A DNA stretch of 64,000 nt from Flavobacteriales bacterium (GTDB lineage: Bacteria; Bacteroidota; Bacteroidia; Flavobacteriales_F; PHOS-HE28). Positions 38,166 to 53,467 of the stretch are shown piece after piece. The stretch is from positions 400,824-464,823 of the forward strand of contig CP064979.1 of the NCBI GenBank assembly GCA_016699575.1. Direction: 5' to 3'. Within the stretch, counting starts at the first letter, position 1. The number at the start of each line of letters is the position of its first letter. The notes beneath the pieces are model-generated. The model did not search any database and was not told where the DNA came from. It saw only the letters and a program-made list of their open reading frames with translations. Both the position numbers and the translations under genes were made by a program.

Positions 38166-40544
38166 ATGAGCAAACGAAACATCCGCAAAGTCGCCGTGCT
38201 CGGCAGCGGCGTCATGGGCAGCCGCATTGCCTGCCACTTCGCGAACACCGGCACCGAAGTGCTGCTGCTCGACATTCCAGCCAAGGAAGGTCCGCGCAAC
38301 AAGATCGTGGACGACGCACTCGCCGCCGCGATCAAGAGCAGTCCGGCGCCCCTGTACGATGCACGCTTCGCCAAGCGCATCAGCACCGGCAACTTCGACG
38401 ACGACCTGCCCAAGATCAAGGACTGCGACTGGATCATCGAGGTCGTGATCGAGCGGCTCGACATCAAGCAGCAACTGCTGGAGAAGGTGGAGAAGCACCG
38501 TACACCGGGCACGCTCATCACCACCAACACCAGCGGCATCCCGATCCACGCCATCAGCGCGGGCCGAAGCGACGACTTCCGCAGGCACTTCTGCGGCACG
38601 CACTTCTTCAACCCGCCGCGCTACCTGCCGCTGCTGGAGCTGATCCCCGGTCCGGACACCGACCCCGCGGTGCTCGCCTTCCTGGAGGACTACGGCCAGC
38701 GCATCCTTGGCAAGGTCACGGTGATGGCCAAGGACACGCCCGCCTTCGTGGCCAACCGCATCGGCGTGTTCGGCATCATGGACGTGTTCCACCTCGTCAC
38801 CGACATGGGCCTTACGGTGGAGGAAGTGGACCGCCTCACCGGCCCCGTGATCGGCCACCCGAAGAGCGCCACCTTCCGCACCGCCGACGTGGTGGGCCTC
38901 GACACGCTGGTGAAAGTCGCGCAGGGCGTGAAGGACAACTGCCCGCACGACGAGCGCAACAGCCTCTTCAGCATTCCGGAGTACCTGCAGCAGATGGTGG
39001 AGAAGAACATGCTCGGCAGCAAGACCGGCAAGGGCTTCTTCTTCAAGGACCGCAACTCACCCAAGGGCGAGATCCTCTCCCTCGACCTGAAGACGCTGGA
39101 GTACAAGCCACAGGTGAAGCCCAAGTTCGCCACGCTGGACGCGGCGAAAAAGGTGGATGACCTGCGCGAGCGCCTCAAACTGGTGTACAACGGCACCGAC
39201 AAGGCCGGCGAATTCTACCGCCGTTCGTTCCAGGCGATGTTCGCATACGTGAGCCACCGCATCCCCGAGATCAGCGACGAGCTGTACAAGATCGACGACG
39301 GCATGCGCGCCGGCTTCGGCTGGGAGGCGGGTCCGTTCGAGACCTGGGACGCCATCGGAGTGCAACAAGTGAAAGATGAAATAGGAAAGCTGAAAGCTGA
39401 AAGTGGAAATGCGCTGACCATCGCGCCATGGGTGGATGAGATGCTTGCGGCTGGTCATACTTCGTTCTACAAAGTGGAGCAGGGCCAACGCCTTTACTAC
39501 GATGTCGCGAGCAAGAGCTACAAGCCGGTGCCACGCGCGGAAGGCTTGATCGTTCTCAACGAATTGCCAGAAAGCAGCATCGTGTGGAAGAACAGCGCCG
39601 CCACCGTGCGTCACCTCAGCGATGGCATCCTGAGCGTGAGCTGGACGAGCAAGATGAACACCATCGGCGCGGAGGTGATCCAGGGCCTCAACAAAGCCAT
39701 CGACCTCGCCGAGCAGGGCTACAAAGGCCTGGTGGTCTACAACGACGGCGCCAACTTCAGCGCGGGCGCCAACGTGGGCATGATCTTCATGATGGCCGTG
39801 GAGCAGGAGTACGACGACCTGGAGATGGCCGTGCGCACCTTCCAGAACACCATGATGCGCATGCGCTACAGCAGCATCCCCGTGGTGGCGGCCCCGCACC
39901 AACTGTGCCTGGGCGGCGGCACCGAGCTCTGCCTGCACGCGGACAAGGTGGTGGCGCACGCCGAGACCTACATGGGCCTGGTGGAATTCGGCGTGGGCGT
40001 GATCCCCGGCGGCGGCGGCACCAAGGAATTCGCCCTGCGCCTCGCCGACGAGCTGAAGGAGGGCGACATCCGCATCAACGCCATGCGCGAGCGCTTCCTC
40101 ACCATCGGCCAGGCCAAGGTGGCCACCAGCGGGCACGAGGCTTTCACGTTAGGCTACTTGCGTCGCGGCCAGGACGAGGTCATTGTCAGCCGCGCCCACC
40201 AGCTGGCCTACGCCAAGGCCTGCGCGCTGGAGCTGTGGAACAAGGGCTACACCAAGCCCGCACCGCGTAAGGACATCAAGGTGCTCGGCCAGGAAGGCCT
40301 CGGCATCGTGTACGTGGGCGCCAACAGCATGCTCAGCGGCAACTACATCAGCCAGCACGATGCGCTGATCAGCGAGAAGCTGGGCTATGTGCTATGCGGG
40401 GGTGACCTGAGCGAGGCTACGGAGGTCTCCGAGCAATACCTGCTGGACCTGGAGCGGAAAGCCTTCGTGGAGCTGTGTATGCAGCGGAAGACGCTCGAGA
40501 GACTTCAGTCGATCATTACTACGGGGAAAGTGTTGCGGAATTGA
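38166..40544 (+). CDS. fadB: bifunctional 3-hydroxyacyl-CoA dehydrogenase / enoyl-CoA hydratase (HCDH N-terminal, ECH C-terminal)
   Basis: N-terminal KVAVLGSGVMGSRIA Rossmann motif and HFFNPP. C-terminal crotonase fold VAAPHQLCLGGGTELCLHAD. About 792 aa. Confidence 0.9.
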   Translation: MSKRNIRKVAVLGSGVMGSRIACHFANTGTEVLLLDIPAKEGPRNKIVDDALAAAIKSSPAPLYDARFAKRISTGNFDDDLPKIKDCDWIIEVVIERLDIKQQLLEKVEKHRTPGTLITTNTSGIPIHAISAGRSDDFRRHFCGTHFFNPPRYLPLLELIPGPDTDPAVLAFLEDYGQRILGKVTVMAKDTPAFVANRIGVFGIMDVFHLVTDMGLTVEEVDRLTGPVIGHPKSATFRTADVVGLDTLVKVAQGVKDNCPHDERNSLFSIPEYLQQMVEKNMLGSKTGKGFFFKDRNSPKGEILSLDLKTLEYKPQVKPKFATLDAAKKVDDLRERLKLVYNGTDKAGEFYRRSFQAMFAYVSHRIPEISDELYKIDDGMRAGFGWEAGPFETWDAIGVQQVKDEIGKLKAESGNALTIAPWVDEMLAAGHTSFYKVEQGQRLYYDVASKSYKPVPRAEGLIVLNELPESSIVWKNSAATVRHLSDGILSVSWTSKMNTIGAEVIQGLNKAIDLAEQGYKGLVVYNDGANFSAGANVGMIFMMAVEQEYDDLEMAVRTFQNTMMRMRYSSIPVVAAPHQLCLGGGTELCLHADKVVAHAETYMGLVEFGVGVIPGGGGTKEFALRLADELKEGDIRINAMRERFLTIGQAKVATSGHEAFTLGYLRRGQDEVIVSRAHQLAYAKACALELWNKGYTKPAPRKDIKVLGQEGLGIVYVGANSMLSGNYISQHDALISEKLGYVLCGGDLSEATEVSEQYLLDLERKAFVELCMQRKTLERLQSIITTGKVLRN

Positions 40545-40600
40545 ACCGACAAAACGACGATCCCGTGTCACACGCGTTCAGCTATAAGCTCGCCAAGATG

Positions 40601-41059
40601 AAAGGTGGTCTTGGTCACTATGGTGAGATCACAGTGGTGGTTGAAGCTAGACTTGCGGATGAGCCGACTATTGTAGAGGCATACAGCGGAACAGGATGGG
40701 AAAGGCAAGGATATGCGCACACTATACCGGACAAGGGTTTCGATGATTGGAAATCGGCGATCCGAATGGGCATCGAATATGCTCTTCGTCGCTTGGAGGA
40801 ACAGAGCATCCGCGTTACAGTGAAAGAAGCCACTGGCTTGATCACTGACACGAACGCGACAATACTTGCCTATGCAGCGTCAAGAGCCCTCTTGGAGAAT
40901 CTTCCCAACCTGGAATCTCAGACGGAAAAGGACCGATTCGAGCAGCTTGTTTTCAGCAGTTTCAACTATGAAGACAGCGCCCAATTGGACCTGGAGCAGT
41001 TCCAGTTAATAGGCCAACTCAGGCCGAAGTCACCATATAGGGTTCAGGCAAATGGCTAA
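40601..41059 (+). CDS. hypothetical protein (island gene A)
   Basis: 152 aa from the MKGGLGHYGE Met. Local GC is about 50% against a host figure above 60%. No motif recognised. An alternative start at 40475 would overlap fadB. Confidence 0.4.
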   Translation, partial: KGGLGHYGEITVVVEARLADEPTIVEAYSGTGWERQGYAHTIPDKGFDDWKSAIRMGIEYALRRLEEQSIRVTVKEATGLITDTNATILAYAASRALLENLPNLESQTEKDRFEQLVFSSFNYEDSAQLDLEQFQLIGQLRPKSPYRVQANG

Positions 41060-41086: not shown

Positions 41087-41235
41087 TTGGGGCGTGCCGG
41101 CTCGCCCTTCGGCTCCGCAGAGCCGCGCTCAGGGTCTCGCCGTCGCGCTTGGAGTTCAGCCCGGGCTCGGACCCGGGCCTACAAGTCCTCGCGCGGATTA
41201 CCGCGCTGTGGGCTTTCCGCTGCAATCGCTCACGC
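41087..41235. repeat. intergenic repeat element, copy A (TTGGGGCGTGCC...hairpin...CGCGGATTACCGCG...GGCTTTCCGCTG)
   Basis: Shares a 12-mer and a roughly 60 nt 3' module with copy B at 46639-46740. The ATTA-loop hairpin shows compensatory changes between the two copies. Confidence 0.55.
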
Positions 41236-41239
41236 ATGA

Positions 41240-41488
41240 GTGCAAGCACGTGAACCTATGATTGACTTCGACCTAAATCGAACATGGGTCTCATTCACAT
41301 GTCCATCGTGTGCCTATATGGATGAAGTTCAGGTCGTGGATGTACGCTCAGAGAAGACCATATTCTGCCACAACTGTAAGTCCTCGATCCGACTCGTCGA
41401 CGGTGATGCTTCCGTGCACACCGGAGTTCGCGACATCAACGACTCCATGACTGACCTATTGAATACGTTCAAAAAGCTCGGACGCTGA
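41240..41488 (+). CDS. small C4 zinc-ribbon protein (island gene B)
   Basis: CPSC...(21 aa)...CHNC. 82 aa. The stop overlaps the next start (ATGA). Confidence 0.45.
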   Translation: MQAREPMIDFDLNRTWVSFTCPSCAYMDEVQVVDVRSEKTIFCHNCKSSIRLVDGDASVHTGVRDINDSMTDLLNTFKKLGR

Positions 41489-42450
41489 TGTACTACAATC
41501 ACAATCTCAGAACCAACCTACAGGAGTGGAAGAATCGCGTTCAGCGCGCTTCAACAAGCAACTTCGGATACCAGATAGACCTGTTGCTGAAGCACATTCA
41601 AGAGGAGCCTGCACTCAATGCGCTCATGGTTGAAGCCGCTCAGCAATTCCCGCATGAGGACGAGCACTTGCAGGAACGAATAAATCTCTATGACTCCAGT
41701 CAGCACATTCCATTCTCTGGACAAGCGGATCGCGCAGCTTTTTCCCAAGCTCTCTTGCATTGGATCATTAGGGAACATGGTGTCGAGTCCGTACCGCATA
41801 TGACCTTATTCATAGGAAGAAAGGATGTCCTCGGAGGAATAGTAGAAGACTGCGTGTCTCCAATTCTGGACTACTTACATGACCGCTTAGACAAGTCTAG
41901 TTCCACGTTGTACCTGCTTGAGAAATACAAGCGTCGGACGGAGTGGTTCATGAAGGACTCTCTCAGAACACGATATCTGTTGGCTGAGAAAGAATACGAG
42001 AAAATCTTCGAGGATGACCTGCGACTATTCCTGTTTGACCAAGGAATCGACTATCCCTTCTCAACCCCTAGTAGTCCTTCTGGCAGAGCTGACGTTGTCG
42101 GCGCTATTGACACCTCGGATCCGCTTGTTGTCGAAATCAAGATTTTCGACCGAAGCAAGAGCTATGGGAAGGATCGTGTACGAAGTGGTCTTGCTCAGGT
42201 CATGAAGTACGTAAATGACTACAACAAGGACTTTGGCTACCTAGTCATCTTCAATGCCGACAACGCTGAATTGCACTTTCAACTCGAAGACATCAGCAAG
42301 GCCTTCCCACCGATGCTTGTCTATAACAACAAGCGATACTTCTTCATAGTGGTCAACATCGGTGAGCATGTTGCAGCTAGCAAAGTCGGCAAGCAAGAGG
42401 TGATTGAACTGTCAACAGATTTCCTGGTATCCAAAGCAGAACTCGCGTGA
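41488..42450 (+). CDS. hypothetical protein with a C-terminal PD-(D/E)xK nuclease-like motif (island gene C)
   Basis: GRADVVGAIDTSDPLVVEIKIFD...GLAQVMKY...GYLVIFN fits a D...(D/E)xK restriction-endonuclease-fold core. The N-terminal roughly 190 aa has no recognisable motif. Low GC. Confidence 0.45.
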   Translation: MYYNHNLRTNLQEWKNRVQRASTSNFGYQIDLLLKHIQEEPALNALMVEAAQQFPHEDEHLQERINLYDSSQHIPFSGQADRAAFSQALLHWIIREHGVESVPHMTLFIGRKDVLGGIVEDCVSPILDYLHDRLDKSSSTLYLLEKYKRRTEWFMKDSLRTRYLLAEKEYEKIFEDDLRLFLFDQGIDYPFSTPSSPSGRADVVGAIDTSDPLVVEIKIFDRSKSYGKDRVRSGLAQVMKYVNDYNKDFGYLVIFNADNAELHFQLEDISKAFPPMLVYNNKRYFFIVVNIGEHVAASKVGKQEVIELSTDFLVSKAELA

Positions 42451-42601
42451 GGGAGAGCAGCGGAAAGCTCGGAGGCCTGTCATCAGGCCGAGGACCTGCC
42501 TGTCCGGCAGGCAGGCTTGCAGCGGATAGCCCGACGGCGCTGCTCTTGTGCGCCGGCACGCCCAACACTTCGACAAGTTCGGTGTGACGACCACCAAGCC
42601 A

Positions 42602-43444
42602 ATGAAAAAGCGCGCGATCACCGTCAAAGGCATCCCCGTCACCGTTGTGGAGCGGAACGAGCAGGACTACATCTCGCTCACCGACATGGTGCAGGGCTTC
42701 GAGGGCGGCAGCGCGCTGATCGAGCAATGGTTGCGCAACAAGGACACGGTGCTCTTCCTGGGTGTGTGGGAGCAGCTGAACAACCCGGCGTTCAATTCCC
42801 TCGAATTCGAGGGAATTGGGAACGCGGCCGGCCGCAACAGTTTCTACCTGTCGGTGAAGAAGTGGATCGACGCCACCGGTGCGATCGGGCTGCACGCGCG
42901 CGCTGGCGGACATGGCGGCACGTATGCGCACAAGGACATCGCCTTCGAGTTCGGTTCGTGGTTGAGCCCAGAGTTCAAGCTGTACCTGATCAAGGAGTTC
43001 CAACGGCTGAAGGAAGCGGAGGCCAGCAACCAGTCGCTGGAATGGAACCTGCAGCGCACTCTGGCCAAGGTCAACTACCGGATCCACACGGATGCCATCA
43101 AGGAGCATTTGATCCCACCGGTGCTCAGCAAGGCGCGCATCAGCGGGGTGTACGCTACCGAAGCCGACCTGCTGAACGTAGCCCTGTTCGGCCTCACCGC
43201 TTCCGAGTGGAAACGGGCCAACCCATCACTTGCCGGCAACATGCGCGACCGCGCCACACTGGAACAACTGGTCGTGCTTTCCAACCTGGAGAGCATCAAC
43301 GCCGTGATGATCCAGCAGGGCCTCGGATCAGCGGAGCGCCTGCAACAACTGAACACGACCGCCATCGGACAGATGAGATCGCTCACCGCAGGTCGCGCAG
43401 CGGACAAGCTGCTGGCGGCCGGCAAGAAGAAACCAAAGAACTAA
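42602..43444 (+). CDS. KilA-N domain protein
   Basis: KRAITVKGIPVTVVERNEQDYISLTDMVQG is a typical KilA-N N-terminal DNA-binding domain. The C-terminal half is of unknown function. Confidence 0.65.
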   Translation: MKKRAITVKGIPVTVVERNEQDYISLTDMVQGFEGGSALIEQWLRNKDTVLFLGVWEQLNNPAFNSLEFEGIGNAAGRNSFYLSVKKWIDATGAIGLHARAGGHGGTYAHKDIAFEFGSWLSPEFKLYLIKEFQRLKEAEASNQSLEWNLQRTLAKVNYRIHTDAIKEHLIPPVLSKARISGVYATEADLLNVALFGLTASEWKRANPSLAGNMRDRATLEQLVVLSNLESINAVMIQQGLGSAERLQQLNTTAIGQMRSLTAGRAADKLLAAGKKKPKN

Positions 43445-43450
43445 GACCCC

Positions 43451-43618
43451 ATGAACGCATACATCATCGCCGGTTTCCGCAGCGCAGTGGGCAAAGCGCC
43501 CTGCCATCGGCAGGCAGGCGCACGCAAATTCCGTTTCACGCGTCCGGATGACCTGGCCGCGCACGTGGTGAACCACCTGGTGGGTTCGGCGCCCCATAAA
43601 CCACACCCAACCACCTGA
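43451..43618 (+). pseudogene. truncated duplicate of the thiolase 5' end (first roughly 45 codons, then a frameshifted tail)
   Basis: ATGAACGCATACAT...GTGGTGAACCACCTGGTGGG is about 90% identical to 45441-45565. It contains a 22 bp insertion and terminates after 55 codons. Confidence 0.7.
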
Positions 43619-43637
43619 CTTTCAGCACGAAACTACA

Positions 43638-43672
43638 TTTGTAACACTTTCGTATACATTTGTGTTACAAAA
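43638..43672. promoter_or_regulatory. AT-rich inverted repeat TTTGTAACAC-N15-GTGTTACAAA upstream of AbiEi (candidate autoregulatory operator)
   Basis: 10 bp perfect inverted repeat seen in the sequence about 70 bp upstream of the antitoxin start. AbiEi antitoxins are known to bind inverted repeats in their own promoters. Confidence 0.45.
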
Positions 43673-43741
43673 CAGGCCCCGATACGCCTTCGCGCTGCCC
43701 TCGCACAGCAACCCACCTAAACACACGCTTCGGCGCACAAC

Positions 43742-44374
43742 GTGAAACGCCCCTCGGTAGAAAAGCTGGTACTGGCGCGCATGGAAGAGCGTGGCCGTGG
43801 CAGCGTGCTCACCCCCAAGGATTTCTGCGACCTGGGTGGGCGCAGCGCGGTGGCCGTGGCCTTGCACCGGCTGGTGAAGAAGGAGGTGGTGCGCAACATC
43901 GGCAACGGCTTGTACTTCTTCCCGGAGCTGGGCGGGATGTTCGGGGAGTCGATAGCGGGTACCTACGAGATCGTCGCCGCCATTGCCAAGCGCGATGGGA
44001 TCACGATACGCGAGACACATGCTTACGCGTCCAACATCACGGGCATAAGCACCCAGGTGCCTACGCGTGTTGCCTTTCAAACCGATGGTCGTTCCCGAAA
44101 GATCCGTTTGAAGCCCATGATACCGGGCGGACGTGCGAATGAGATCATTCTCCGACGCACCAGTTCGCGCTACATGCGGGCGCGCACCGAGGTGGGCTAC
44201 TTGGTGATCCAGGGCCTGCGTGACTACGGTCGAAAGAACATCGGTAAGGAGGAATATGCCGAGCTGCTCAGACGGCTGCCCCCTCACGGAAAAGAGGATC
44301 TGAAAAAGGACCTGGACATCGCCCCGGTCTGGATCGCGGACATCATGCGTCGATTGATCGCTGAAGCACCATGA
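43742..44374 (+). CDS. abiEi: AbiEi-family antitoxin / transcriptional regulator (type IV toxin-antitoxin)
   Basis: N-terminal wHTH-like region, about 200 aa, 4 bp overlap with the downstream nucleotidyltransferase gene. GTG start (alternative ATG at 43781). Confidence 0.65.
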   Translation: MKRPSVEKLVLARMEERGRGSVLTPKDFCDLGGRSAVAVALHRLVKKEVVRNIGNGLYFFPELGGMFGESIAGTYEIVAAIAKRDGITIRETHAYASNITGISTQVPTRVAFQTDGRSRKIRLKPMIPGGRANEIILRRTSSRYMRARTEVGYLVIQGLRDYGRKNIGKEEYAELLRRLPPHGKEDLKKDLDIAPVWIADIMRRLIAEAP

Positions 44375-45444
44375 GCGCGCATCCATTCCTCCATTTACCG
44401 GAAGCACGGCAACGTTCATTGCTTATTCGTGCCAACAATCTACTCCCCCTCGCGATATCCAGTATCGAGAAGGATGTCTACGTCTGCCTCTTTCTGGAGA
44501 AAGTGATGGCACTTCCTGGCATCGGCGAGCATCTCACGTTCAAAGGCGGCACGTCACTCTCCAAGGCGCACAAGATCACGGACCGTTTCTCCGAGGATGT
44601 GGATCTGGTAGTTGATCGCCATGTGCTTGGTCTCGCGGAAGATGGCATCCCCGGCGGACATCATTCTCCGAGGCAACAGAAGGAGCGCGCAAAGAAGATC
44701 GCGAAAGCCTGTCGAACATGGGCTGCAAATACACTCATTCCCGCCTTACGCACTTCCCTCGCAACTGAACTGCGCAATGGCTCATGGAGCCTCGACCTGA
44801 ACGCCGACAGCGATAACCATGAGACAGTGCTCTCATTCGGCTATCCCAAGCTTTTCGTACCGGACGGCGAGTACATCCTGGACCATGTGAAGGTGGACCT
44901 CGTGGCGAAGGCCGATGCTTGGCCAAGCACAACGATACCTGTGTGCGCTTACGTACATGAGCTCTTCACGGAAGAGTTCGGCGATGGTTCATTCCCAGTC
45001 CGCACACTGGAAGCTGAACGCACGTTGATCGAAAAAGCACTGTTGCTTCACGAAGTTCTGGTCCAGCGTCCGGATGGTCCACGTCGTCGATTGGCGCGGC
45101 ACTACTTCGACCTGTACTTCCTCCATCGCGCCGGTGCAACAACAAAAGCCATCGCCCGAGCTGACCTGTATCCTGCTGTCGTTCAACAGCGCAGCATCTA
45201 CTACCGCTATCCCGGAGTGGACTACGATGCGCTATTGACAGAAGGCTTCAGCATCATTCCGCAAGGCGCGGCACGTGCTGCTTGGCATAGCGACTACGAC
45301 GGCATGCAGAGCGATATGTTCTATGGAAACGTGCCAGCCTTCGACGACATCATGACCGCCATGGAACAGTTCCAAGCAACGTTCCGCGAGCATCTTCAAC
45401 AAACGACATCAGCGCCGAGCAGTCGGCAACACGAACACCCATGA
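44371..45444 (+). CDS. abiEii: AbiEii/AbiGii-family nucleotidyltransferase toxin (DUF1814)
   Basis: KGGTSLSKAHKITDRFSEDVDLVV matches the GGT(A/S)L...R.SED(I/V)D pol-beta-like nucleotidyltransferase core of AbiEii. Confidence 0.75.
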   Translation: MSAHPFLHLPEARQRSLLIRANNLLPLAISSIEKDVYVCLFLEKVMALPGIGEHLTFKGGTSLSKAHKITDRFSEDVDLVVDRHVLGLAEDGIPGGHHSPRQQKERAKKIAKACRTWAANTLIPALRTSLATELRNGSWSLDLNADSDNHETVLSFGYPKLFVPDGEYILDHVKVDLVAKADAWPSTTIPVCAYVHELFTEEFGDGSFPVRTLEAERTLIEKALLLHEVLVQRPDGPRRRLARHYFDLYFLHRAGATTKAIARADLYPAVVQQRSIYYRYPGVDYDALLTEGFSIIPQGAARAAWHSDYDGMQSDMFYGNVPAFDDIMTAMEQFQATFREHLQQTTSAPSSRQHEHP

Positions 45445-46616
45445 ACGCATACATAATCTCCGGTTTCCGTTCCGCCGTAGGCAAAGCGCCCCGCGGCAAA
45501 TTCCGTTTCACGCGTCCGGATGACCTGGCCGCGCACGTGGTGAACCACCTGGTGGGCTCGGTGCCCGGGCTGGAGCGCGACCGCATCGACGATGTGATCG
45601 TGGGCAACGCCACGCCCGAGGCCGAGCAGGGCCTGAACATCGGCCGCATGATCAGCCTGATGGGCCTGAACACCGACAAGGTGCCGGGCATGACGGTGAA
45701 CCGCTACTGCAGCAGCGGCAGCGAGACCATCGCCATTGCCGCGGCCAAGATCCACAGCGGGCAGGCCGACGTGATCGTGGCGGGCGGCGTGGAGTGCATG
45801 AGCCCGATCCCCTTCGGCGGCTGGCGCATCGTGCCGAACGCCAAGGTGGGCAAGGCGCAGCCCACGTACTACTGGGGCATGGGCCTCACCGCCGAGGCCG
45901 TGGCGCGCGACTTCAAGGTGAGCCGGGAGGACCAGGACGCCTTCAGCCTGCGCAGCCACGAGAAGGCGCTGGCCGCGATCAGCTCCGGCAAGTTCAAAGA
46001 CGAGATCGTGCCCTACACCGTGGAGCGCGTGTACCTGGACGCGAAGGAGAAGCGCCAAGTGGAGCAATACGTGGTGGACACCGATGAAGGTCCGCGCGCG
46101 AGCACCCTGGAGGCGCTGGCTAAGCTGAAGCCCGTGTTCGACGCGAAGGGCAGCGTGACGGCAGGCAACGCCAGCCAGACGAGCGATGGCGCGGCCTTCG
46201 TGCTGGTAGTGAGCGAGCGCATGCTGAAGCAGCTCAATGTGAAGCCGATCGCGCGCCTGCTCTCCTACCATGTGGCCGGGGTGGAGCCGCGCATCATGGG
46301 CATCGGTCCGGTGGCGGCAGTGCCGAAGGCGCTGGAGAAGGCCGGGCTGAAGCTGAGCGACATCGGGCTGTTCGAGCTGAACGAGGCCTTCGCGAGCCAA
46401 TCGCTGGCGGTGGTGCGCGAGCTGGGCATCGACCCGGAGATCGTGAACGTGAACGGCGGCGCGATCGCGCTGGGGCATCCGTTGGGGTGCACGGGCGCGA
46501 AGCTGAGCGTGCAGTTGTTCAATGAGATGCGGCGGCGGAAGCAGAAGTATGGGGTGGTGACGATGTGCGTGGGGACGGGGCAGGGGGCGGCGAGTGTGTT
46601 TGAGTTGTTGAATTGA
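45441..46616 (+). CDS. fadA: acetyl-CoA C-acyltransferase (thiolase II)
   Basis: NRYCSSGSETIA (active-site Cys), ...GNASQTSDGAA..., and C-terminal NVNGGAIALGHPLGCTGA. Confidence 0.9.
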   Translation: MNAYIISGFRSAVGKAPRGKFRFTRPDDLAAHVVNHLVGSVPGLERDRIDDVIVGNATPEAEQGLNIGRMISLMGLNTDKVPGMTVNRYCSSGSETIAIAAAKIHSGQADVIVAGGVECMSPIPFGGWRIVPNAKVGKAQPTYYWGMGLTAEAVARDFKVSREDQDAFSLRSHEKALAAISSGKFKDEIVPYTVERVYLDAKEKRQVEQYVVDTDEGPRASTLEALAKLKPVFDAKGSVTAGNASQTSDGAAFVLVVSERMLKQLNVKPIARLLSYHVAGVEPRIMGIGPVAAVPKALEKAGLKLSDIGLFELNEAFASQSLAVVRELGIDPEIVNVNGGAIALGHPLGCTGAKLSVQLFNEMRRRKQKYGVVTMCVGTGQGAASVFELLN

Positions 46617-46638
46617 TGGAGCAGAAGCGGGATAGTGT

Positions 46639-46740
46639 TTGGGGCGTGCCCCCGCCTCAAATGCAGGCGGGGTCCGGCTTTCCGCTGTACTCCTCGCACG
46701 GATTACCGTGCTGCGGGGTGCCGCTCCAATCCGTCACGCG
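46639..46740. repeat. intergenic repeat element, copy B, with a terminator-like hairpin
   Basis: TTGGGGCGTGCC + CCCGCCT-CAAATGC-AGGCGGG hairpin + CGCACGGATTACCGTGCTG module, lying between convergent genes. Confidence 0.55.
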
Positions 46741-46766
46741 AATACCTATCCGGAACAACCCGGAGT

Positions 46767-47573
46767 TTACTGCAAATTAGCAGCAGCGTTCATCAATTTC
46801 GCCTGAAGCTTCGAGAAACGGCCAAGTTGTTCAGCGGTAAGATTGCTACCAGCGTTCTGCAACTTCGACTGAAGTTCTGTCGCGTTCTCCATCATCGCTG
46901 GATATTCAGCGATTGCTGAAGCATCACCGTTCTTGGCGGCTTTCGCAAGTTTGATGTAGTCATCAACGTACTGCTCATAGCTCGTCAGAATGTCGTCCCA
47001 ATCTTCATCGCCCGTAAGAGCAATGTCACCACTCGACTCAGAATCGCCGGAAGATGTAATTGGACTTGTGTCCTGCTCTTCCATTGACGATGACAACTTC
47101 ACCTTCTTGGCCTTACCCGGATTCTTTTCCAGTTCGGTATTTCCACTAAGTGAAAATTCCAACCATGCGGTCTCATTTGCTCCGAGTGAAAGAGCCTTCT
47201 CGAATGGCTCATAGCCATACTTCTCCAAGTTCGTAGCCAATGGCAAATCTCCTTCTCCCAACATATCAGCAGCGATGCACCACTGGTACTTCTTCCCAGC
47301 CCCAACGCCACATACCTGTGCATCATTGGCATCGAATGGCAGAGGCTCGTCCGTTCGCTTTATTTCCACTAGGAGCTTGGTGCCGAAGATCTCTTCACTA
47401 ACCTTAAGCACTGCCTTTGTCACGATATAGCTCTCCGACAACGTTCCAGACATTGTTTGCTCGACTTCGAGCGGAAAGTCCCCGGCTTGCTTTTTATCGG
47501 GATCGGAACTTCCTCCACAGGAAACAGCAAGGGCGGAAACAAGAAGGGCGGCGGACGGCAGCAAGAACTTCAT
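46767..47573 (-). CDS. lipoprotein, hypothetical (lower GC)
   Basis: MKFLLPSAALLVSALAVSCGG lipobox. Acidic Ser/Asp/Glu-rich middle. About 50% GC. Confidence 0.5.
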   Translation of the reverse strand: MKFLLPSAALLVSALAVSCGGSSDPDKKQAGDFPLEVEQTMSGTLSESYIVTKAVLKVSEEIFGTKLLVEIKRTDEPLPFDANDAQVCGVGAGKKYQWCIAADMLGEGDLPLATNLEKYGYEPFEKALSLGANETAWLEFSLSGNTELEKNPGKAKKVKLSSSMEEQDTSPITSSGDSESSGDIALTGDEDWDDILTSYEQYVDDYIKLAKAAKNGDASAIAEYPAMMENATELQSKLQNAGSNLTAEQLGRFSKLQAKLMNAAANLQ

Positions 47574-47741
47574 GGATGGATTGTTAACTGGTTCGCACGA
47601 AAATATGGGAAGTCGTTCACACAATCACTACAAGGGCACAGACGTAGCTTTGAGAAGCTTGCAAACCACCAGTGAATCACGGCAATCCATCCGTACGTCG
47701 TCCAAAGCGCGTTGACGAAGAAGCCATCACTCGTTGAGACC

Positions 47742-48650
47742 ATGACCACCCTTTCACGTACCTGTCGCGCTCTGGCCTGCGCATCAATGATCGCTTGTCA
47801 AACGCCCTCGCCGAGTAGCAGCACATCACCCCACGAGATCCACACCGCCGACTACGACCTGATCATCCCCGCCGAGCAGAAAGCCCTGCTGATCCTCTTT
47901 CCCTGCTTCAGTTGCGCCGCGACGGATACACGAGCGGAGTCGCGCATCGCGGACACGGCCGCGGCGAACGGCATCGCGGTGCTGATGCTGAACTTCAACC
48001 GGCACATCCTGATGAGCGAGGCCGAGCAGCAGGAGGTGATCGGCACGATCGCGGGCGCGGTAGCGGCGCACGGCGTGGATGCGTCGAACACGGTCATCGG
48101 CGGCTTCTCCTCCGGCGGCAACGTGAGCGTGCTGCTGGCGAAGGCGCTGCTGCGATCGACCGATCCGCCGGTGCAGCTGAAAGGCGTGTTCGCCGTGGAC
48201 AGTCCGCTGGACCTGGTGCACCTGTACGAATGCTCGCAGCGCGACCTGGCGAAGACCAGCTTCCCCGAATACAAGGACGAGGCGCGCTACCTGATCGCGT
48301 TCCTGGACAGCGCCCTCGGCTCGCCCACGGACAATCTGTCCAACTACGAACGCGCCGCTCCCCTGCTCAACTCGTCCGCGAGCGTGGCGCCGCTGAAGGA
48401 CCAGCCCATCCGCTTCTACACCGAGCCGGATACGGCCTGGTGGCGCACCCACCGCGACGATGTCTACGAAGAGCTGAACGCCTTTGGGTTGAAGCGCATC
48501 CACGATACACTGGTAGCGGTGGGGAATACGCGGGCGGAGTACATCACCACCGAGGGGCGGGGCGTGCAGCATGGGAACAGGCATCCGCACGCGTGGTCGA
48601 TCGTGGATGAGCAGGAGTTGGTGCGGTGGATCGAGGGGTTGGTGGAGTGA
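47742..48650 (+). CDS. alpha/beta hydrolase (esterase/lipase-like) lipoprotein
   Basis: GFSSGG nucleophile elbow (GxSxG) and a dienelactone-hydrolase-like layout. N-terminal lipobox ...ACASMIAC. Confidence 0.55.
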   Translation: MTTLSRTCRALACASMIACQTPSPSSSTSPHEIHTADYDLIIPAEQKALLILFPCFSCAATDTRAESRIADTAAANGIAVLMLNFNRHILMSEAEQQEVIGTIAGAVAAHGVDASNTVIGGFSSGGNVSVLLAKALLRSTDPPVQLKGVFAVDSPLDLVHLYECSQRDLAKTSFPEYKDEARYLIAFLDSALGSPTDNLSNYERAAPLLNSSASVAPLKDQPIRFYTEPDTAWWRTHRDDVYEELNAFGLKRIHDTLVAVGNTRAEYITTEGRGVQHGNRHPHAWSIVDEQELVRWIEGLVE

Positions 48651-48756
48651 GGCGCTCCACCTTTCGCCTTCCTGTTGTATGTTGTGGAATGCCAAGCGAC
48701 GAGGAACTCGTCAACGGCCAAGACCAATCCTTCGCTAAAGCTTCGGCTTGCAAATC

Positions 48757-49611
48757 ATGAGCGCCCTGCTTCCTTCCTCCACCCTCTTTGAACAGCACCA
48801 GATCCGCAGACTCTACGATGAAGCCACAGAGAAGTGGTGGTTCTCGGTGATCGACATCGTCGGAGCCCTGATCGATCAGCCCGACTACCAAGCTGCGCGC
48901 AACTACTGGAAGGTGCTGAAGCACAGGCTGGCCCAAGAGGGAAGTCAACTGGTTACAGATTGTAACCGGTTGAAGTTGCCCGCTGATGATGGCAAGATGC
49001 GGGATACGGATGTGGCCAAAGCCGAAACGCTACTACGACTGGTCCAGTCGGTGCCCAGCCCGAAGGCCGAACCCATCAAACTCTGGCTGGCGAAGGTGGG
49101 GTACGAGCGCATGCAAGAAATGGCCGACCCGAGCTTGGGCCTTGACCGCGCCCGCGAGCTATGGCGCAAGCACGGCCGCAGCGAGAAGTGGATCCAGCAG
49201 CGGATGATGGGCCAGGAGACGCGCAACAAGCTGACGGACTATTGGAAAGAGCACGACATCAAGGAAGGTGAAGAGTTCGCGATCCTCACCAACATCATTC
49301 ACCAGGAATGGAGTGGTGTGACGGTGAAGGACCACAAGGCGATCAAGGGCCTGAAGACCCAGAACCTCCGCGACCACATGACCGAAGCCGAACTGATCTT
49401 CACGGCGCTGGCGGAGATGAGCACCCGGCAGATCGCGGAGACCGAGCAGGCCAAGGGCATGCCGAAGAACAAGGTGGCGGCACGCAAAGGCGGCGGGATC
49501 GCGAAGAAGGCGCGGCTGGAGTTGGAGGAGAAGACCGGAAGGCCGGTGGTGTCGGGGAGCAATTTCTTGCCGCCGAAGAAGAAACAGGTCACAAAAGGCA
49601 AAAGGAAATGA
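48757..49611 (+). CDS. Bro-N domain protein (DNA-damage-inducible protein D-like, phage antirepressor-type N-terminus)
   Basis: LFEQHQIRRLYDEATEKWWFSVIDIVGAL is a Bro-N/DinD-like N-terminal domain. Lys-rich C-terminus. Confidence 0.55.
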   Translation: MSALLPSSTLFEQHQIRRLYDEATEKWWFSVIDIVGALIDQPDYQAARNYWKVLKHRLAQEGSQLVTDCNRLKLPADDGKMRDTDVAKAETLLRLVQSVPSPKAEPIKLWLAKVGYERMQEMADPSLGLDRARELWRKHGRSEKWIQQRMMGQETRNKLTDYWKEHDIKEGEEFAILTNIIHQEWSGVTVKDHKAIKGLKTQNLRDHMTEAELIFTALAEMSTRQIAETEQAKGMPKNKVAARKGGGIAKKARLELEEKTGRPVVSGSNFLPPKKKQVTKGKRK

Positions 49612-50738
49612 AAGGAACCCGCACGGTCATTTGTCAAACCCTCGGAACGCTGCTCCTCCTCTCCTGCAACGGCCAACCCGCGAGCAAGGCACCGGTGCTG
49701 ATCATGAACGATACGGTTAAGATCCCGACCGAATGGTTCCTGAAACTCGACTACCCAGAGCAACTGTGCCACTGGGTGCGCAACATGCACCAGGACAAGA
49801 GCGGCACGCTGTGGTTCGGCACCAACCACTACGGGCTGATCCGATACGCGAACGATACGCTGGAGTACCTCGCTGATAGTGCCGGCATCACCTCTGGTCG
49901 CATCAACGGGATCGTGGAAGGCGCGGACGGCATCCTGTGGGTCGCTACGGTTGGTGAAGGGCTGTTCAATTACGATCCCTCAGCTCGCCATTCCGCACGT
50001 CACGGCTTCAGTCAGTTGACCACGAAGGATGGCCTGTTGCACAACGACATCTGGAGCATGACCATGGGCCGCGATGGCGTGTTGTTGATCGGGACGATGA
50101 ATGGCATATGCACGTTTGACGGTCGCACCTTCACAACGATCGATCTGCCAGCATCCACAGCGGTGGACTCCTTGGTCCAATTATCGCCCACCCGCATCAC
50201 ATGCATCCTGGAGGACAGCCATGGCAAGATCTGGTTCGGGCGAGATGGTGATGGGCTCTTCGTAATCGACCCGAAGGAGACCGGATCGCCCGGAACGTTC
50301 AAGCACTACACCGTTGAGGATGGCCTACCCGACAACAGCGTCTCCGGCCTGATGGAGGACAGCAAGGGTCGGTTGTGGATCGGTACCAACTTCAGTGGCG
50401 TGAGCCTCTTCGATCCTTCCGCCGTAACGGAGAAAGGGAACAACGCGTTCACCAACTTCACGAAGGACGGCGTGATCCAAGGGATCGAAGCGGGTGCGTT
50501 CCACGAAGACCGGTCTGGGCACATCTGGTTCGCCGCGGAGCACCAGGGTGTTTTCCGCTACGATGGGACGAGCTTCACTAACTACGGCCCCAAGGACGGC
50601 TTGAGCTCAGGCGGGATCCTATCCATCATGGAAGACCGGGAAGGTCGTTTCTGGTTCGGTGGTTTCGGTGGGCTCTTCCGGTTCGACCGGAAGACCGAGC
50701 GGTTCACGCCGGTTGGGAAGCAGGGACCGTGGAACTAG
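49608..50738 (+). CDS. lipoprotein made of two-component-regulator propeller (Reg_prop) repeats, with no kinase domain
   Basis: Seven or more repeats of the type G(L/I)W(F/I)GT..G(L/V)..(F/Y)D. Lipobox LLLLSCNG. Stands alone, with no Y_Y_Y/HisKA/HATPase domains. Confidence 0.55.
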   Translation: MKGTRTVICQTLGTLLLLSCNGQPASKAPVLIMNDTVKIPTEWFLKLDYPEQLCHWVRNMHQDKSGTLWFGTNHYGLIRYANDTLEYLADSAGITSGRINGIVEGADGILWVATVGEGLFNYDPSARHSARHGFSQLTTKDGLLHNDIWSMTMGRDGVLLIGTMNGICTFDGRTFTTIDLPASTAVDSLVQLSPTRITCILEDSHGKIWFGRDGDGLFVIDPKETGSPGTFKHYTVEDGLPDNSVSGLMEDSKGRLWIGTNFSGVSLFDPSAVTEKGNNAFTNFTKDGVIQGIEAGAFHEDRSGHIWFAAEHQGVFRYDGTSFTNYGPKDGLSSGGILSIMEDREGRFWFGGFGGLFRFDRKTERFTPVGKQGPWN

Positions 50739-51361
50739 GACGAGGGATCATGAACAACGCACGAACACCCAGCTCCTTGAAGTCGGCGACCAAAGTTCGA
50801 TCCGCCAATGCGAATTCGCGCAAGCGGGAAGGAGCGCACATGCACATACCGTTCGCCCTCGCACAAGGCTCTTCGCAGCAGGACCACTTCAGTTACCTGC
50901 ACTTCACTTCGGGTACCGAACAGCGGGAGACTTTCCCAAGCACGCTCGAATTGCGCGGGCTTCAAACCAGCCGCGATGGTGAGGTACGGGTGCTCGGTCT
51001 CGCGGATGGCATCACGCAAGGCCTCGTTGGCCATCAGCGCCGCAACGATAGGTGTACGCACCTTGGCGATGGCGTCCTTCTGTACCGGGTCGATGTAGAT
51101 GGTGCGCTTGTCGGGGAAGCGGGTGATGCCGTCGTAGTGCAAGGTAAAGCTGCGCTTACCCTTCGAGCCGAGGGCGATGGCTTGGATGATGGCAGATCCG
51201 TGCTCGGCTGGCAGATCGAGGAAGCACAGCGTGATGTGCGGCGGCGTGTTGCGCCCGCTGAAGGAACCGACGCGCTCGTGCAACACGGTGCGCCGGCGGT
51301 CCACTTTGGCTGCAAGCGCCAGGGATGGAAGGATGGTGAGGAGATAGCGGTGTTTCATCAT
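50735..51361 (-). CDS. 2H phosphoesterase superfamily protein (LigT/2'-5' RNA ligase-like), paralog 1
   Basis: Two H-x-(T/S)-x motifs: PPHITLCF and HPYLTIAAG. Confidence 0.65.
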   Translation of the reverse strand: MMKHRYLLTILPSLALAAKVDRRRTVLHERVGSFSGRNTPPHITLCFLDLPAEHGSAIIQAIALGSKGKRSFTLHYDGITRFPDKRTIYIDPVQKDAIAKVRTPIVAALMANEALRDAIRETEHPYLTIAAGLKPAQFERAWESLPLFGTRSEVQVTEVVLLRRALCEGERYVHVRSFPLARIRIGGSNFGRRLQGAGCSCVVHDPSS

Positions 51362-51559
51362 TCCAAAGTTCCATAACGAGTGTGGTCCCGGCCCGCATTG
51401 CCGACCTGAAAGCGCTACGGCACAGCTCAGGCTTCCACCATCCTTGTGCGGGATCCATGGGCGTGCAATGCTTCCTTTGATCCGGCGGCGATCAGGTCCC
51501 TCGCGCTACTTTGTCCGACCGATCCCAAGCCCACGGACCGGCGGATAACCCAGCGCTCT

Positions 51560-52771
51560 ATGGATGCCTATGACGTACTGACCTTCCTCAGCGGGCTGAT
51601 CATCTTCAGCTACCTCTTCGATCTCTTCGCGAAGCGGACGCGCGTACCCTCGGTACTGCTGTTGTTGGCAACAGGCATGGGACTACGGGCGGTGGCGGAT
51701 TACTGGGGCTTTCAAGCGTTCGATGTGAACCGCATTCTGCCGGCACTGGGCAACGTGGGCCTGATCCTCATCGTGTTCGAAGGTGCGTTGGACCTGACCT
51801 ATACACCGTCCAAACGGCCCCTGATCCGCAAGGCGTTCCTGTCCTCGTTGTTCCTTCTGCTCTTGACGACGGCCGGGATCGCGTACCTCCTGTTCTTGCT
51901 CACAGCGGCCCCATTGACAGCCTGCGTGGCCAATGCAGTACCCCTGAGCGTGGTGAGTTCCGCGGTGGCCATTCCATCAGCGCGTGGCTTGCCCGAGCAC
52001 GAACGCGAGTTCGTGGTGTACGAGTCCTCCTTCTCGGACATCCTGGGCATCATCCTGTTCAACTTTTTGGTCTCCAACGAAACGTTCGGTGCCGTGGCCT
52101 TCGGTCATTTGGGCCTCGAAATAGTCGGTGTGCTTGCGTTGAGCGCTGTATTCTCCATCGCCCTGCTCTGGTTGCTCGGCCGCATCACGCACCACGTCAA
52201 GTTCTTCCTGATCCTCGCCATCCTCATCCTGGTGTACGCGGTCGGCAAACAATTCCATCTGTCGTCGTTGGTAGTGATCCTCGCCTTCGGCATGTTCCTC
52301 TCCAACGCGGACCAAATGCCGTTCGACTGGTTCCGGCAACGCTTCCTTTACCCTGGCTTCCACAAGGACCTGGAACAATTCCATTCCCTCTCCAACGAGA
52401 GCGCCTTCCTGATCCGCACCTTCTTCTTCGTGTTGTTCGGCTTCAGCGTGGTGGCCGGTGCGTTGATCGACACCCAGGCAGCTATGCTTTGCGGGGTGTT
52501 GTTATTGGCGATCTATCTCATCCGTCCGCTCTTCATCCGGCTAGCGGTGGGCATGCGCTCCGCAGCGGTGATGTTCATCACCCCGCGCGGGCTCATCAGC
52601 ATCCTGTTGTTCTTCTCGCTACCGGCCTCATTGCGCATACCCGAGGTGGATACCCCGCTGCTTTTCATGGTGGTGCTGGCCACATGCTTGATCATGGCCA
52701 TCGGGTTGATCGCCAGCGGAACGAGCCTCCCGCTCGTGGAGAACGGGAACGGGAACGATCAAGCGAAGTAA
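51560..52771 (+). CDS. monovalent cation:proton antiporter (CPA family)
   Basis: About 11-12 TM helices and a Na_H_Exchanger-like pattern (LLLATGMGLR, ILIVFEGALDL). Confidence 0.7.
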   Translation: MDAYDVLTFLSGLIIFSYLFDLFAKRTRVPSVLLLLATGMGLRAVADYWGFQAFDVNRILPALGNVGLILIVFEGALDLTYTPSKRPLIRKAFLSSLFLLLLTTAGIAYLLFLLTAAPLTACVANAVPLSVVSSAVAIPSARGLPEHEREFVVYESSFSDILGIILFNFLVSNETFGAVAFGHLGLEIVGVLALSAVFSIALLWLLGRITHHVKFFLILAILILVYAVGKQFHLSSLVVILAFGMFLSNADQMPFDWFRQRFLYPGFHKDLEQFHSLSNESAFLIRTFFFVLFGFSVVAGALIDTQAAMLCGVLLLAIYLIRPLFIRLAVGMRSAAVMFITPRGLISILLFFSLPASLRIPEVDTPLLFMVVLATCLIMAIGLIASGTSLPLVENGNGNDQAK

Positions 52772-52789
52772 GAGGCCGACGCGCTGTTC

Positions 52790-53335
52790 TCACCGCAACT
52801 GGAAGCTCCGCACCAGCCCGTACCGCTCGCCGGGCAGCAGCACCCGCTTGAGCAGCACGACCTCGGTCACGTGCTCCGCGCTGGTGTACGTGTGCGGCGC
52901 GAGCAGGTCCCAGGCCGCATCGAACTGGTGGGGTTTCTGTCCGGCTGCGAGGGTCAGGTGCGGGTGATCGGTCTCGCGAACGGCCGCGTGCAAGCGGGGA
53001 TCGGCGGTGAGGGCCGCAACGATGGGCGTGCGCACCACGGCGATGGCCTCCTTCTCCACCGGGTCGATGTAGGTGGTGCGCTTGTCGGGGAAATGGGTAA
53101 TGCCGTGGTAGTGTAGGGTGAAGCCCGGTTGACCGGTCACACCTCTGGAGATGGCATCAATGATGGCGGGCTCATGCGCGGCGGGCAGGTCCAGGAAGCA
53201 GAGGGTGATGTGCGGTGGGTTGTGGCGGCCGTTGAAGGAGCCGATGCGGGCGTGGAGCGCGGTGCGCAGGCGCTCCACCTCGGCGGCCAGGGCCGGGGCG
53301 GGCAGGATGGCGAGGAGGAAGCGGTGGAGCGCCAT
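52790..53335 (-). CDS. 2H phosphoesterase superfamily protein (LigT-like), paralog 2
   Basis: PPHITLCF and HPHLTLAAG. About 65% identical by eye to paralog 1 over the first roughly 170 aa. Confidence 0.65.
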   Translation of the reverse strand: MALHRFLLAILPAPALAAEVERLRTALHARIGSFNGRHNPPHITLCFLDLPAAHEPAIIDAISRGVTGQPGFTLHYHGITHFPDKRTTYIDPVEKEAIAVVRTPIVAALTADPRLHAAVRETDHPHLTLAAGQKPHQFDAAWDLLAPHTYTSAEHVTEVVLLKRVLLPGERYGLVRSFQLR

Positions 53336-53372
53336 GAGCGGTCAAACTTCACCATGACCGCTTGGAAATTTA

Positions 53373-53386
53373 TTATGCGTGCATAA
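53373..53386. promoter_or_regulatory. operator candidate TTATGC-GT-GCATAA upstream of the acyl-CoA dehydrogenase gene
   Basis: Same TATGC-N2-GCATA(AC) dyad as the site at 37573 upstream of MarR. It lies in the divergent promoter region. Confidence 0.45.
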
Positions 53387-53467
53387 CTTTAACCCGAAGC
53401 AACCGTAGAACATCAGGGGCATTTCGATCATCTGATCGTCCGATCCCTGATCAACTGATCGACACCC

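Follow-up and report, generated by a model that had tools for sequence, protein, structure and literature searches.

How does a two-gene toxin-antitoxin module come to lie between two copies of the beginning of a housekeeping gene, with no recombinase gene beside it? The question is raised by a 64,000-nt stretch of contig CP064979.1 from a Flavobacteriales bacterium (positions 400,824–464,823; hereafter the window), in which an AbiEi/AbiEii pair separates a truncated and an intact copy of the start of an acetyl-CoA acyltransferase (thiolase, fadA-like) gene. Coordinates are positions in the window, and L-numbers denote the approximately 95 related loci with which it was compared. The module lies between a fadB-like gene and the thiolase gene, in a spacer that is a lineage-wide, recombinase-free defence-gene hotspot within the beta-oxidation operon of a high-GC Flavobacteriales group. 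The truncated copy is probably, although with considerable room for doubt, the displaced former start of the resident thiolase gene, left by a recombination event that was homologous inside the thiolase gene and illegitimate on its other side, and subsequently reused as a homology arm.

Anatomy of the duplicated thiolase start

The right copy (45438–45566, plus strand), as aligned with the left, is the functional thiolase start. It opens an intact gene of 391 codons (45441–46616, plus strand) that matches Pfam Thiolase_N from profile position 2 (2e-63) and the complete Thiolase_C profile (6.6e-50), is 99% identical to its counterparts in L001 and L002, and serves as the homologous anchor in the origin proposed here. 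The left copy (43448–43594, plus strand) comprises thiolase nt −3 to +126 plus an insert, and opens a 55-codon open reading frame (ORF; 43451–43618) that is incapable of being a thiolase. The repeat thus begins 3 nt 5′ of the thiolase ATG and ends at thiolase nt 126, and about 118 of 129 aligned bases match. A preliminary description of the locus had recognized an AbiEi/AbiEii pair bracketed by direct repeats, one an intact thiolase start and the other a remnant, with about 90% identity, and the alignment bears out each of these points. Its statement that the last ~75 bp are identical is slightly overstated: 49 of the first 57 nt match (86%) and 69 of the last 71 (97%), with perfect identity over 61 nt (left-copy 43524–43584). 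Within the left copy, 22 nt (43502–43523) replace CGCG of the right copy, a net gain of 18 nt, and include the palindrome CCTGCC-ATC-GGCAGG. The palindromic insert reads CCCTGCC-ATC-GGCAGG-CAGGC (43499–43519, plus strand), and its fold is not exceptional (z=−1.1). The interval between the copies contains nothing but a leader carrying an inverted repeat, an AbiEi gene of the DUF6088 type and an AbiEii gene; as described earlier, ORF, Pfam and PADLOC results give no recombinase there.

The 34-nt core of the repeat is present at just two places in the 64 kb and is absent from all 100 shuffles, and BLAST of the window against itself recovers the pair with E=2e-35; no other gene-end duplication of this kind appears in the window self-comparison. 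The window is probably metagenome-assembled, and repeats of 60–130 nt break short-read assemblies, so that a false duplication introduced by assembly or binning needs consideration. It is highly improbable. An independent short-read assembly (SRR11674035; L087) has an identical unit with the same repeat bounds, is 100% identical to 43555–45525, and has its ends exactly 30 nt inside the two copies of the 61-nt perfect stretch, the position expected from a graph with k=31. The layout with a duplicated start is found again in at least 10 other assemblies, long-read metagenome-assembled genomes (MAGs) included, and the two copies differ both in sequence and by the 18-nt insert. The recurrence of the layout and the match to L087 argue that the duplication is not an assembly artefact.

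Thiolase-start remnants in related loci

Truncated thiolase starts in related loci end at several different points and are followed by different cassettes. Remnants ending at nt 126 precede AbiE in the window and in L084 (~875), which has the same joint, and precede a 205-aa ORF in L095 (~2079). Those ending at nt 77 precede AbiE in L010, L012, L044, L052, L082, L083, L086 and L092. Four-helix-bundle genes of the 23S_rRNA_IVP family (IVP) follow remnants that end at ~nt 29 (L017, L029) and ~nt 52 (L092), and a KilA-N gene follows one ending at nt 95 (L020). Finally, a remnant ending at ~nt 80 is followed by 17 nt and the full gene with no cassette between them in L024, L040, L043, L070 and L088. 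Together with a palindrome, this ~nt-80 remnant makes up a conserved upstream ORF (uORF) of 35 codons, which has a TGA overlapping the ATG of the real thiolase gene and sits between AbiEii and the thiolase gene in L010, L012 and L088. The uORF coordinates are 4834–4941 in L010, 4039–4146 in L012, 1756–1863 in L024, 9894–10001 in L040, 10001–10108 in both L043 and L070, and 8077–8187 in L088; the functional thiolase start in the uORF loci shares only ~79% identity with the remnant and is a recoded allele.

In other genomes the AbiE pair, which the preliminary description suggested looking for with and without the flanking thiolase fragment, is found in both states: besides the loci with remnants, the cassette occurs without one in L002, L030, L041, L085 and L088. 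These remnant-free cassettes read ...CCC/TCC|(T)GCAAACCACACCCAACCACCTGACC, and their left end follows a copy of a repeat related to the Rfam motif Flavo-1 (see below). The window joint reads ...GCGCCC|CATAAACCACACCCAACCACCTGAC (GCGCCC|CATAAACCACACCC...), and CC(C) is common to thiolase nt 124–126 and to the sequence left of GCAAACC in the remnant-free cassettes, so that the window join falls at a microhomology. The nt-77 joint shares CC, and microhomology of 2–3 nt is too short to exclude chance. The intact window copy reads CCC|GGG, a SmaI-type palindrome, at thiolase nt 126 (45564–45569); one idea, drawn from this motif, is that the nt-126 joint might have originated at a restriction break in a hotspot rich in restriction-modification (RM) genes. 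The same remnant–AbiE joint is present behind at least four upstream contexts (KilA-N, three different leaders, and another ORF), which places exchange points in or at the remnant.

In at least 13 loci the intact thiolase gene is followed, beyond a short or long insert, by a mirror-image remnant of its own 3′ end, and in three loci intact fadB is followed by a remnant of the fadB 3′ end. A mechanism specific to the thiolase start does not predict 3′-end remnants of two genes, whereas recombination anchored in the adjacent core gene does. Examples for the thiolase gene are located in L005 (11636–11769), L012 (5765–5899 and 6503–6616), L026 (11223–11375), L027 (11146–11412), L030 (11619–11669 and 12320–12490), L043 (11262–11528), L088 (9842–9991) and L095 (4338–4415); those for fadB are in L020 (642–836), L021 (7308–7520) and L042 (1847–2041).

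These end points bear directly on the earlier proposal that the arrangement is the footprint of site-specific integration, with the element supplying a replacement gene start. Insertion at the 5′ end of a gene is upheld and a replacement start brought by the insert is plausible from the two alleles, but site specificity is unsupported. Stated fully, the module would be a small integrative element, similar to a cis-mobilizable element (CIME) or a satellite, with an att site in the first ~30 nt of the thiolase gene, an attP carrying the replacement start, and a recombinase acting in trans. Such an element would account for direct repeats flanking a discrete 1.85-kb unit, for the very well conserved first 29 nt or more that all remnants share, for the different 5′ alleles of the two copies, and for the many AbiEii homologues on contigs of ~1.9–2.4 kb, i.e. 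assemblies that break at flanking repeats. It does not account for left copies whose similarity to the thiolase gene runs a variable 29–126 nt past any common core, unlike an element-derived attL arm, nor for remnants ending at ~29, 52, 77, 80, 95 and 126 nt with no fixed att core, nor for cassettes that lack a remnant. The 3′-end remnants of two genes show the same pattern, and the cassette is internally mosaic (see below). The preliminary description took relatives showing the repeat without any insertion as evidence that would go against integration; in L024, L040, L043 and L070 a remnant and the full gene are indeed only 17 nt apart.

The module is moreover confined to one place. AbiEii relatives of 91%, 85% and 55% identity are all upstream of this thiolase gene where the context is readable, and down to 50–55% identity this single locus is the only one wherever context was recovered; plasmid and phage records contain only distant AbiEii relatives (no more than 34% identical), and the cassette is never seen at another locus, on a plasmid or in a phage. 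No recombinase, integrase or transposase is present among 20 scanned spacer proteins of relatives, no recombinase or transposase among the window genes at 31–58 kb (~12 kb around), and no tRNA or tmRNA gene that could be an integration target in the window region. Site-specific integration is accordingly an unlikely origin. The same KilA-N gene that precedes the left copy in the window abuts the intact thiolase gene in L011, L028, L039 and L020, and these loci can be taken as analogues of an empty site. Excision of the cassette is possible, and if it occurs the circle junction would run from the AbiEii end through thiolase nt 1–126 to CATAAACC; the L087 unitig comprises one repeat period, as would also be expected from a chromosomal segment bounded by repeats. 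Without a population comparison, direct repeats on either side of a toxin-antitoxin pair are not to be taken as att sites.

Alleles and mosaicism of the cassette

The two window copies differ unevenly, at 8 of 57 positions and then at 2 of 71 (Fisher p=0.023), and the bases at which they differ represent alternative alleles, both of them segregating among relatives, such as Ser AGC versus TCC. Among close relatives, thiolase nt 1–60 are 8–23% divergent as compared with 0–4% at nt 61–400. Third-codon-position diversity in 15 close relatives is 0.25–0.42 over nt 1–90 and 0.34–0.53 over the last 60 nt, and 0.01–0.12 over nt 150–480.

The AbiE cassette of the window is a mosaic of two lineages. 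The segment 43595–45295 is 88–100% identical to L088 per 100 nt while 45295–45495 is only 72–83% identical; this latter segment is 91–99% identical to L002, which is only 58–81% identical across the AbiE body. The cassette ends (the leader and AbiEi N-terminus on one side, the AbiEii tail and thiolase start on the other) are nearly identical in all lineages, unlike the middle, which is divergent between them. The right border is anchored, in that the right copy runs into the thiolase gene and carries donor-type polymorphisms, with an L002-like 3′ end and an L088-like body. When thiolase-start alleles were compared with the kinds of cassette upstream of them, the pattern was mosaic with no clean linkage, and the automatic neighbour labels were noisy; of this comparison, only the segregation of both alleles is relied on.

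A tandem duplication in situ, or unequal sister-chromatid exchange, could have copied the AbiE genes together with thiolase nt 1–126, with later loss or replacement of the upstream AbiE copy and drift of the repeat. The topology of the product would be the same, and a recent duplication or gene conversion could have left the 61-nt perfect stretch behind. Drift after duplication fits poorly, however, with divergence of 14% followed by 3%, and with differences that are pre-existing alleles of other lineages, including a two-step switch of a Ser codon. The four relatives in which KilA-N abuts an intact thiolase gene make the left copy look like the resident start, and the lineage from which the AbiE body derives is not that of its 3′ end. 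We regard an origin in situ as doubtful.

A proposed origin by anchored recombination

The origin favoured here would involve a donor genome with AbiE directly upstream of its thiolase gene and a recipient with the KilA-N–thiolase arrangement. The incoming segment would have begun just left of the AbiE operator and run through AbiE into the thiolase gene, with the right crossover being homologous and located inside the thiolase gene, and the left join being illegitimate, at the 2–3-nt CC(C) microhomology after thiolase nt 126. The former thiolase start of the recipient would thereby have been pushed upstream as the remnant, and the donor's start installed on the functional gene. Such a process would be homology-facilitated illegitimate recombination, and the same product would be expected if a circularised fragment had inserted in Campbell fashion. 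Homology-facilitated illegitimate recombination has been proposed for type VI secretion system (T6SS) effector-immunity arrays and Rhs orphans (PMC5361080). Afterwards the remnant and the intact thiolase gene would constitute two homology arms for ordinary homologous recombination, such that the cassette, or only its variable middle, could be swapped between genomes irrespective of the upstream content. This agrees with core defence hotspots that lack the hallmarks of mobile elements, for which transfer by homologous recombination in the flanks has been proposed (PMC10250203). As a speculation from the repeat itself, deletion mediated by the 61-nt stretch would leave a thiolase with a 6-residue insertion.

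Several observations weigh against this origin. The recombination is reconstructed from end products, with no event directly observed, and it would presuppose RecA as well as uptake of foreign DNA, through competence or transduction, by an uncultured lineage. The nt-77 joint could be derived from the nt-126 joint by a 63-nt deletion, and cassette classes, rather than AbiE joints, are for this reason counted as independent events; AbiE itself may record a single founding event. The nt-126 joint is found with two unrelated cassettes (AbiE and the 205-aa ORF of L095), and nt 52–57 were struck by three different inserts; this reuse of joints hints at preferred break sites and not at random illegitimate joining. 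The thiolase-start allele is not tightly linked to cassette type. Lastly, the Flavo-1-like repeats show a more than 100-fold concentration in the hotspot, with their polarity fixed towards core genes.

If anchored recombination is indeed the origin, a defence module would need no more than a short duplicated piece of a conserved gene to be carried between genomes by ordinary homologous recombination, regardless of what lies upstream. The locus is an unusually legible record of how defence genes may arrive at, and spread among, chromosomal hotspots without integrases: dozens of genomes have the site empty, singly occupied or stacked, the remnants mark individual events, and the mosaic breakpoints are clear.

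A defence hotspot in the fadB–thiolase spacer

A scan with the thiolase protein, using one genome per species, yielded 80 loci with thiolase identities from 99% to 76%, nearly all of them in Flavobacteriales MAGs from activated sludge and fresh water. The spacer between fadB and the thiolase gene is only 8–22 nt in eight of them (L032, L049, L064, L074, L075, L077, L079 and L080) and is up to 8,001 nt in others. Its contents vary by genome and include AbiE, KilA-N/PDC-S22 and IVP four-helix-bundle genes, XamI- and AlwI-type RM systems, SLFN/AlbA_2 and AAA_14-DUF4143 ATPases, putAbiC, HNH_2, a D12 methyltransferase, and genes with no assigned function; ORF clusters with family support are all on the operon strand. 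The spacer thus combines constant core flanks with variable, defence-rich contents and shows no hallmarks of a mobile element.

The upstream boundary of the hotspot in the window is the fadB-like 3-hydroxyacyl-CoA dehydrogenase/enoyl-CoA hydratase gene (38166–40544, plus strand; Pfam 3HCDH_N, 3HCDH and ECH_1). It is followed by orf194 (40475–41059, plus strand), a cargo gene with no Pfam or PADLOC match that is taken from the ORF list, probably starts downstream of 40544, and has a 91% identical copy at the same place in L019. Next is a cargo pair from the ORF list, orf82 (zinc-ribbon-like) and orf320 (41240–42450, plus strand), within an inverted pair of Flavo-1-like repeats; the GC content is 48–50% over 41.2–42.4 kb as compared with ~60–65% in the flanks. 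The KilA-N domain gene (42548–43444, plus strand; Pfam KilA-N 1.8e-19) matches the PADLOC candidate PDC-S22 (3e-125), likely starts at an ATG at ~42603, and ends 6 nt before the left thiolase-start copy. The possibility that KilA-N is a self-mobile gene was rejected, as it is single-copy per locus, with no extra copies or other duplicated gene starts seen.

A Bro-N gene downstream of the thiolase gene (48748–49611) matches PADLOC PDC-S13 (1e-121), and both KilA-N and Bro-N genes recur beside this thiolase gene in many relatives. An acyl-CoA dehydrogenase gene (53468–55258), presumably the operon partner of the thiolase gene, lies ~6.8 kb past it. The interval between them (46616–53468) contains DUF6591, hydrolase, Bro-N, Reg_prop, antiporter and LigT genes, a mixture that marks the post-thiolase region as a second variable zone.

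Flavo-1-like repeats and small palindromes

The window contains three copies of a ~110-nt Flavo-1-like repeat, all at the hotspot and none elsewhere: a rightwards copy at 41131–41240 (nhmmer profile E=2e-22), a leftwards copy at 42441–42573 (E=3e-19) that contains a tiny palindrome at 42495–42522 (fold −20 kcal/mol, z=−1.9), and a rightwards copy at 46632–46748 (1.2e-21) that starts 16 nt after the thiolase stop. In Rfam scans, whether of the region or of all 64 kb, the one Flavo-1 match was to RF01705 at 46667–46744, with a score of 32.8 bits that is below the gathering score of 42; miRNA-type Rfam hits in the window were dismissed as noise. The function of the Flavo-1 motif is not known (PMC9723704).

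A census with the profile covered loci with up to 10 kb of flank per side, which is ~85 kb of distinct genomic context and not genome-wide, and found 103 copies, with 75 between fadB and the thiolase gene, 26 within 3 kb after the thiolase gene, and 2 elsewhere. Inverted pairs bracket blocks of cargo, the GGGCGTGCC end facing the core gene and the CTCACGCG end facing the cargo; examples are at 6790–6889/9865–9966 in L026, 3587–3688/7056–7156 in L041, and 2109–2217/7107–7206 in L044. Rightwards copies in the fadB–thiolase spacer are each preceded by ATGAACGC, which is the first 8 nt of the thiolase gene, and copies after the thiolase stop carry TGATGGAGC... in its place; the 5′ sequence of the rightwards spacer copies reads ATGAACGC GGTGAAGCATAGTGG. 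The repeat could be a unit bounded by terminal inverted repeats with an 8-nt target duplication, a decayed remnant, or a further homology arm. The Flavo-1-like box pattern has no hits among IMG/VR viral contigs.

Palindromic inserts of 18–30 nt, of the form CCTGCC-N3-6-GGCAGGCAGG or the variant CCCGC...GCGGGACAGG, sit in thiolase-start remnants, at or in 3′-end remnants, inside Flavo-1-like repeats, and, apparently in frame, inside otherwise continuous Bro-N genes. Besides the two in the window (43499–43519 and 42495–42522), they are located at 2992, 3015 and 4883 in L010, 1805 in L024, 10050 in L043, 11209 in L026, 14521 in L001, 13513 in L027, 12176 in L040, and 2049 in L063. In L052, an insert of another sequence, 30 nt long, lies 4 nt from the usual palindrome site. 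A structural RNA role of the palindrome finds no support, its folds being no better than those of GC-matched shuffles.

Together these elements raise the possibility of a dedicated cassette-exchange system, integron-like or similar to mobile insertion cassettes, in which the repeats, the palindromes or both are sites at which a trans-acting enzyme would recombine or break the DNA, and in which the thiolase-start duplications are long target duplications, the signature of a mechanism rather than chance scars. The confinement of 101 of 103 copies, including all three in the window, to the hotspot or its borders points this way, as do the fixed polarity, the first 8 nt of the thiolase gene in front of rightwards spacer copies, the palindromes at or in remnants of both thiolase ends and in Bro-N genes, and the recurrence of joints at nt 52–57 and nt 126. 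Nonetheless, no enzyme has been identified, AbiE, KilA-N and IVP lie outside the inverted pairs, and the repeats do not separate every cassette. The AbiE joints show microhomology only, the palindromes fold no better than shuffles, and the repeats could merely travel with hotspot DNA as homology arms; their restriction to the hotspot is shown for the context sampled rather than genome-wide. A dedicated system is on balance improbable. If it does exist, it would mean integron-like stacking of co-oriented, translationally coupled defence genes within an operon of Flavobacteriales, and the orphan Rfam motif Flavo-1 would gain a function. The repeats and the tiny palindromes are concrete leads to such a mechanism.

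The AbiE module

The cassette leader (43595–43741, plus strand) is kept in all AbiE loci of this type and is 90–100% identical across lineages. It carries the conserved left end CATAAACCACACCCAACCACCTGAC and an inverted repeat with arms TTTGTAACAC (43638–43647) and GTGTTACAAA (43662–43671) separated by TACATTTG. The 10-nt inverted repeat is kept in all loci, including an AbiE type of 50% identity, and is the presumed AbiEi operator. The antitoxin/repressor gene (43742–44374, plus strand) matches Pfam DUF6088 (1.6e-29) and PADLOC AbiEi (5.6e-44). The nucleotidyltransferase toxin gene (44371–45444, plus strand) matches Pfam AbiEii PF08843 (2.5e-37; profile positions 2–237 of 238) and PADLOC AbiEii (2.1e-80), and its translation contains GGT and DxD-type motifs (FKGGTSL and EDVDLVVD). 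The AbiEi stop and AbiEii start overlap as ATGA (44371–44374), and the AbiEii TGA overlaps the thiolase ATG in the same manner.

AbiE systems are type IV toxin-antitoxin and abortive infection systems, consisting of an AbiEi repressor-antitoxin and an AbiEii nucleotidyltransferase of the DUF1814 type. They are defined by a bacteriostatic toxin, an antitoxin that neutralises it, inverted repeats in the promoter through which AbiEi represses its own gene, and abortion of phage infection. The window module shares their antitoxin-then-toxin order, overlapping genes, upstream inverted repeat and nucleotidyltransferase motifs, and differs in having an antitoxin of the DUF6088 branch and in being chromosomal, fixed at one locus within an operon, and translationally abutting a housekeeping gene. 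It is a known kind of system, and its products would be expected to act in toxicity and phage defence.

A scan for promoters of the sigma-70 type, which does not cover those of Bacteroidota, found none; the Bacteroidota pattern TTTG-N17-21-TAnnTTTG has no match. The operator region holds TAnnTTTG with a TTTG only 13 nt upstream, and no −33/−7 promoter is claimed. AbiE is probably expressed from its own operator region. No plus-strand terminator was found between AbiE and the thiolase gene, and given the overlap of the AbiEii stop with the thiolase ATG, thiolase could still be made by read-through and translational coupling. The stop/start overlap thus illustrates how a housekeeping operon may tolerate defence cargo.

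Comparison with known systems

Core defence hotspots between conserved core genes are described in P. aeruginosa (cDHS; PMC10250203) and in E. coli (PMC10121019). The fadB–thiolase spacer resembles the cDHS in its constant flanking core genes, very variable defence-rich content and lack of a recombinase. It differs in lying within a metabolic operon, in having cargo genes in one orientation, often start/stop-coupled to the gene that follows, and in flanks that themselves leave duplicated gene-end remnants. The Vibrio cholerae T6SS effector-immunity arrays and the Rhs/contact-dependent inhibition (CDI) loci with their orphan modules (PMC5361080) offer a parallel in the homologous anchor with an illegitimate other end, and in the old end being pushed aside and kept as an orphan with some conserved sequence, repeated rounds building up arrays. 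The displaced piece there is a functional toxin tip or immunity gene, whereas in the fadB–thiolase hotspot it is a fragment from one or other end of a housekeeping gene, for which no function of its own is evident, and both 5′ and 3′ ends are involved.

Integron cassettes are likewise co-oriented, mostly promoter-dependent stacks at one site, with structured repeats at some borders. AbiE, by contrast, has its own operator region, the joints differ from cassette to cassette, and the Flavo-1-like repeats enclose groups of genes instead of individual cassettes and lack attC features; no intI, attI or attC was found, and no integrase among the window region genes or the scanned spacer proteins of relatives. 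Islands and prophages that target a gene end, most often the 3′ terminus of tRNA or tmRNA genes, make the gene whole again by duplicating the att sequence. The likeness is a direct repeat of a gene end that flanks the insert, one copy keeping the gene intact, but these islands need an integrase, a fixed crossover core and a constant repeat length, none of which holds at the window locus. Such gene-end integration is treated by Williams 2002, as cited by PMC10250203. The setting of the AbiE module is a variant of known phenomena, an intra-operon, recombinase-free defence hotspot with cassettes bordered by displaced ends of housekeeping genes.

Other repeats in the window

Two further sets of direct repeats are located to the right of the hotspot. 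A 420-nt repeat with 75% identity (50934–51352 and 52908–53326) flanks a Na+/H+ exchanger gene (51446–52771) and seemingly corresponds to two minus-strand LigT/2′-5′ RNA ligase-like paralogues. Short direct repeats of 88–98 nt with 78–82% identity are near the end of the window (62510–62822 and 63867–63964).

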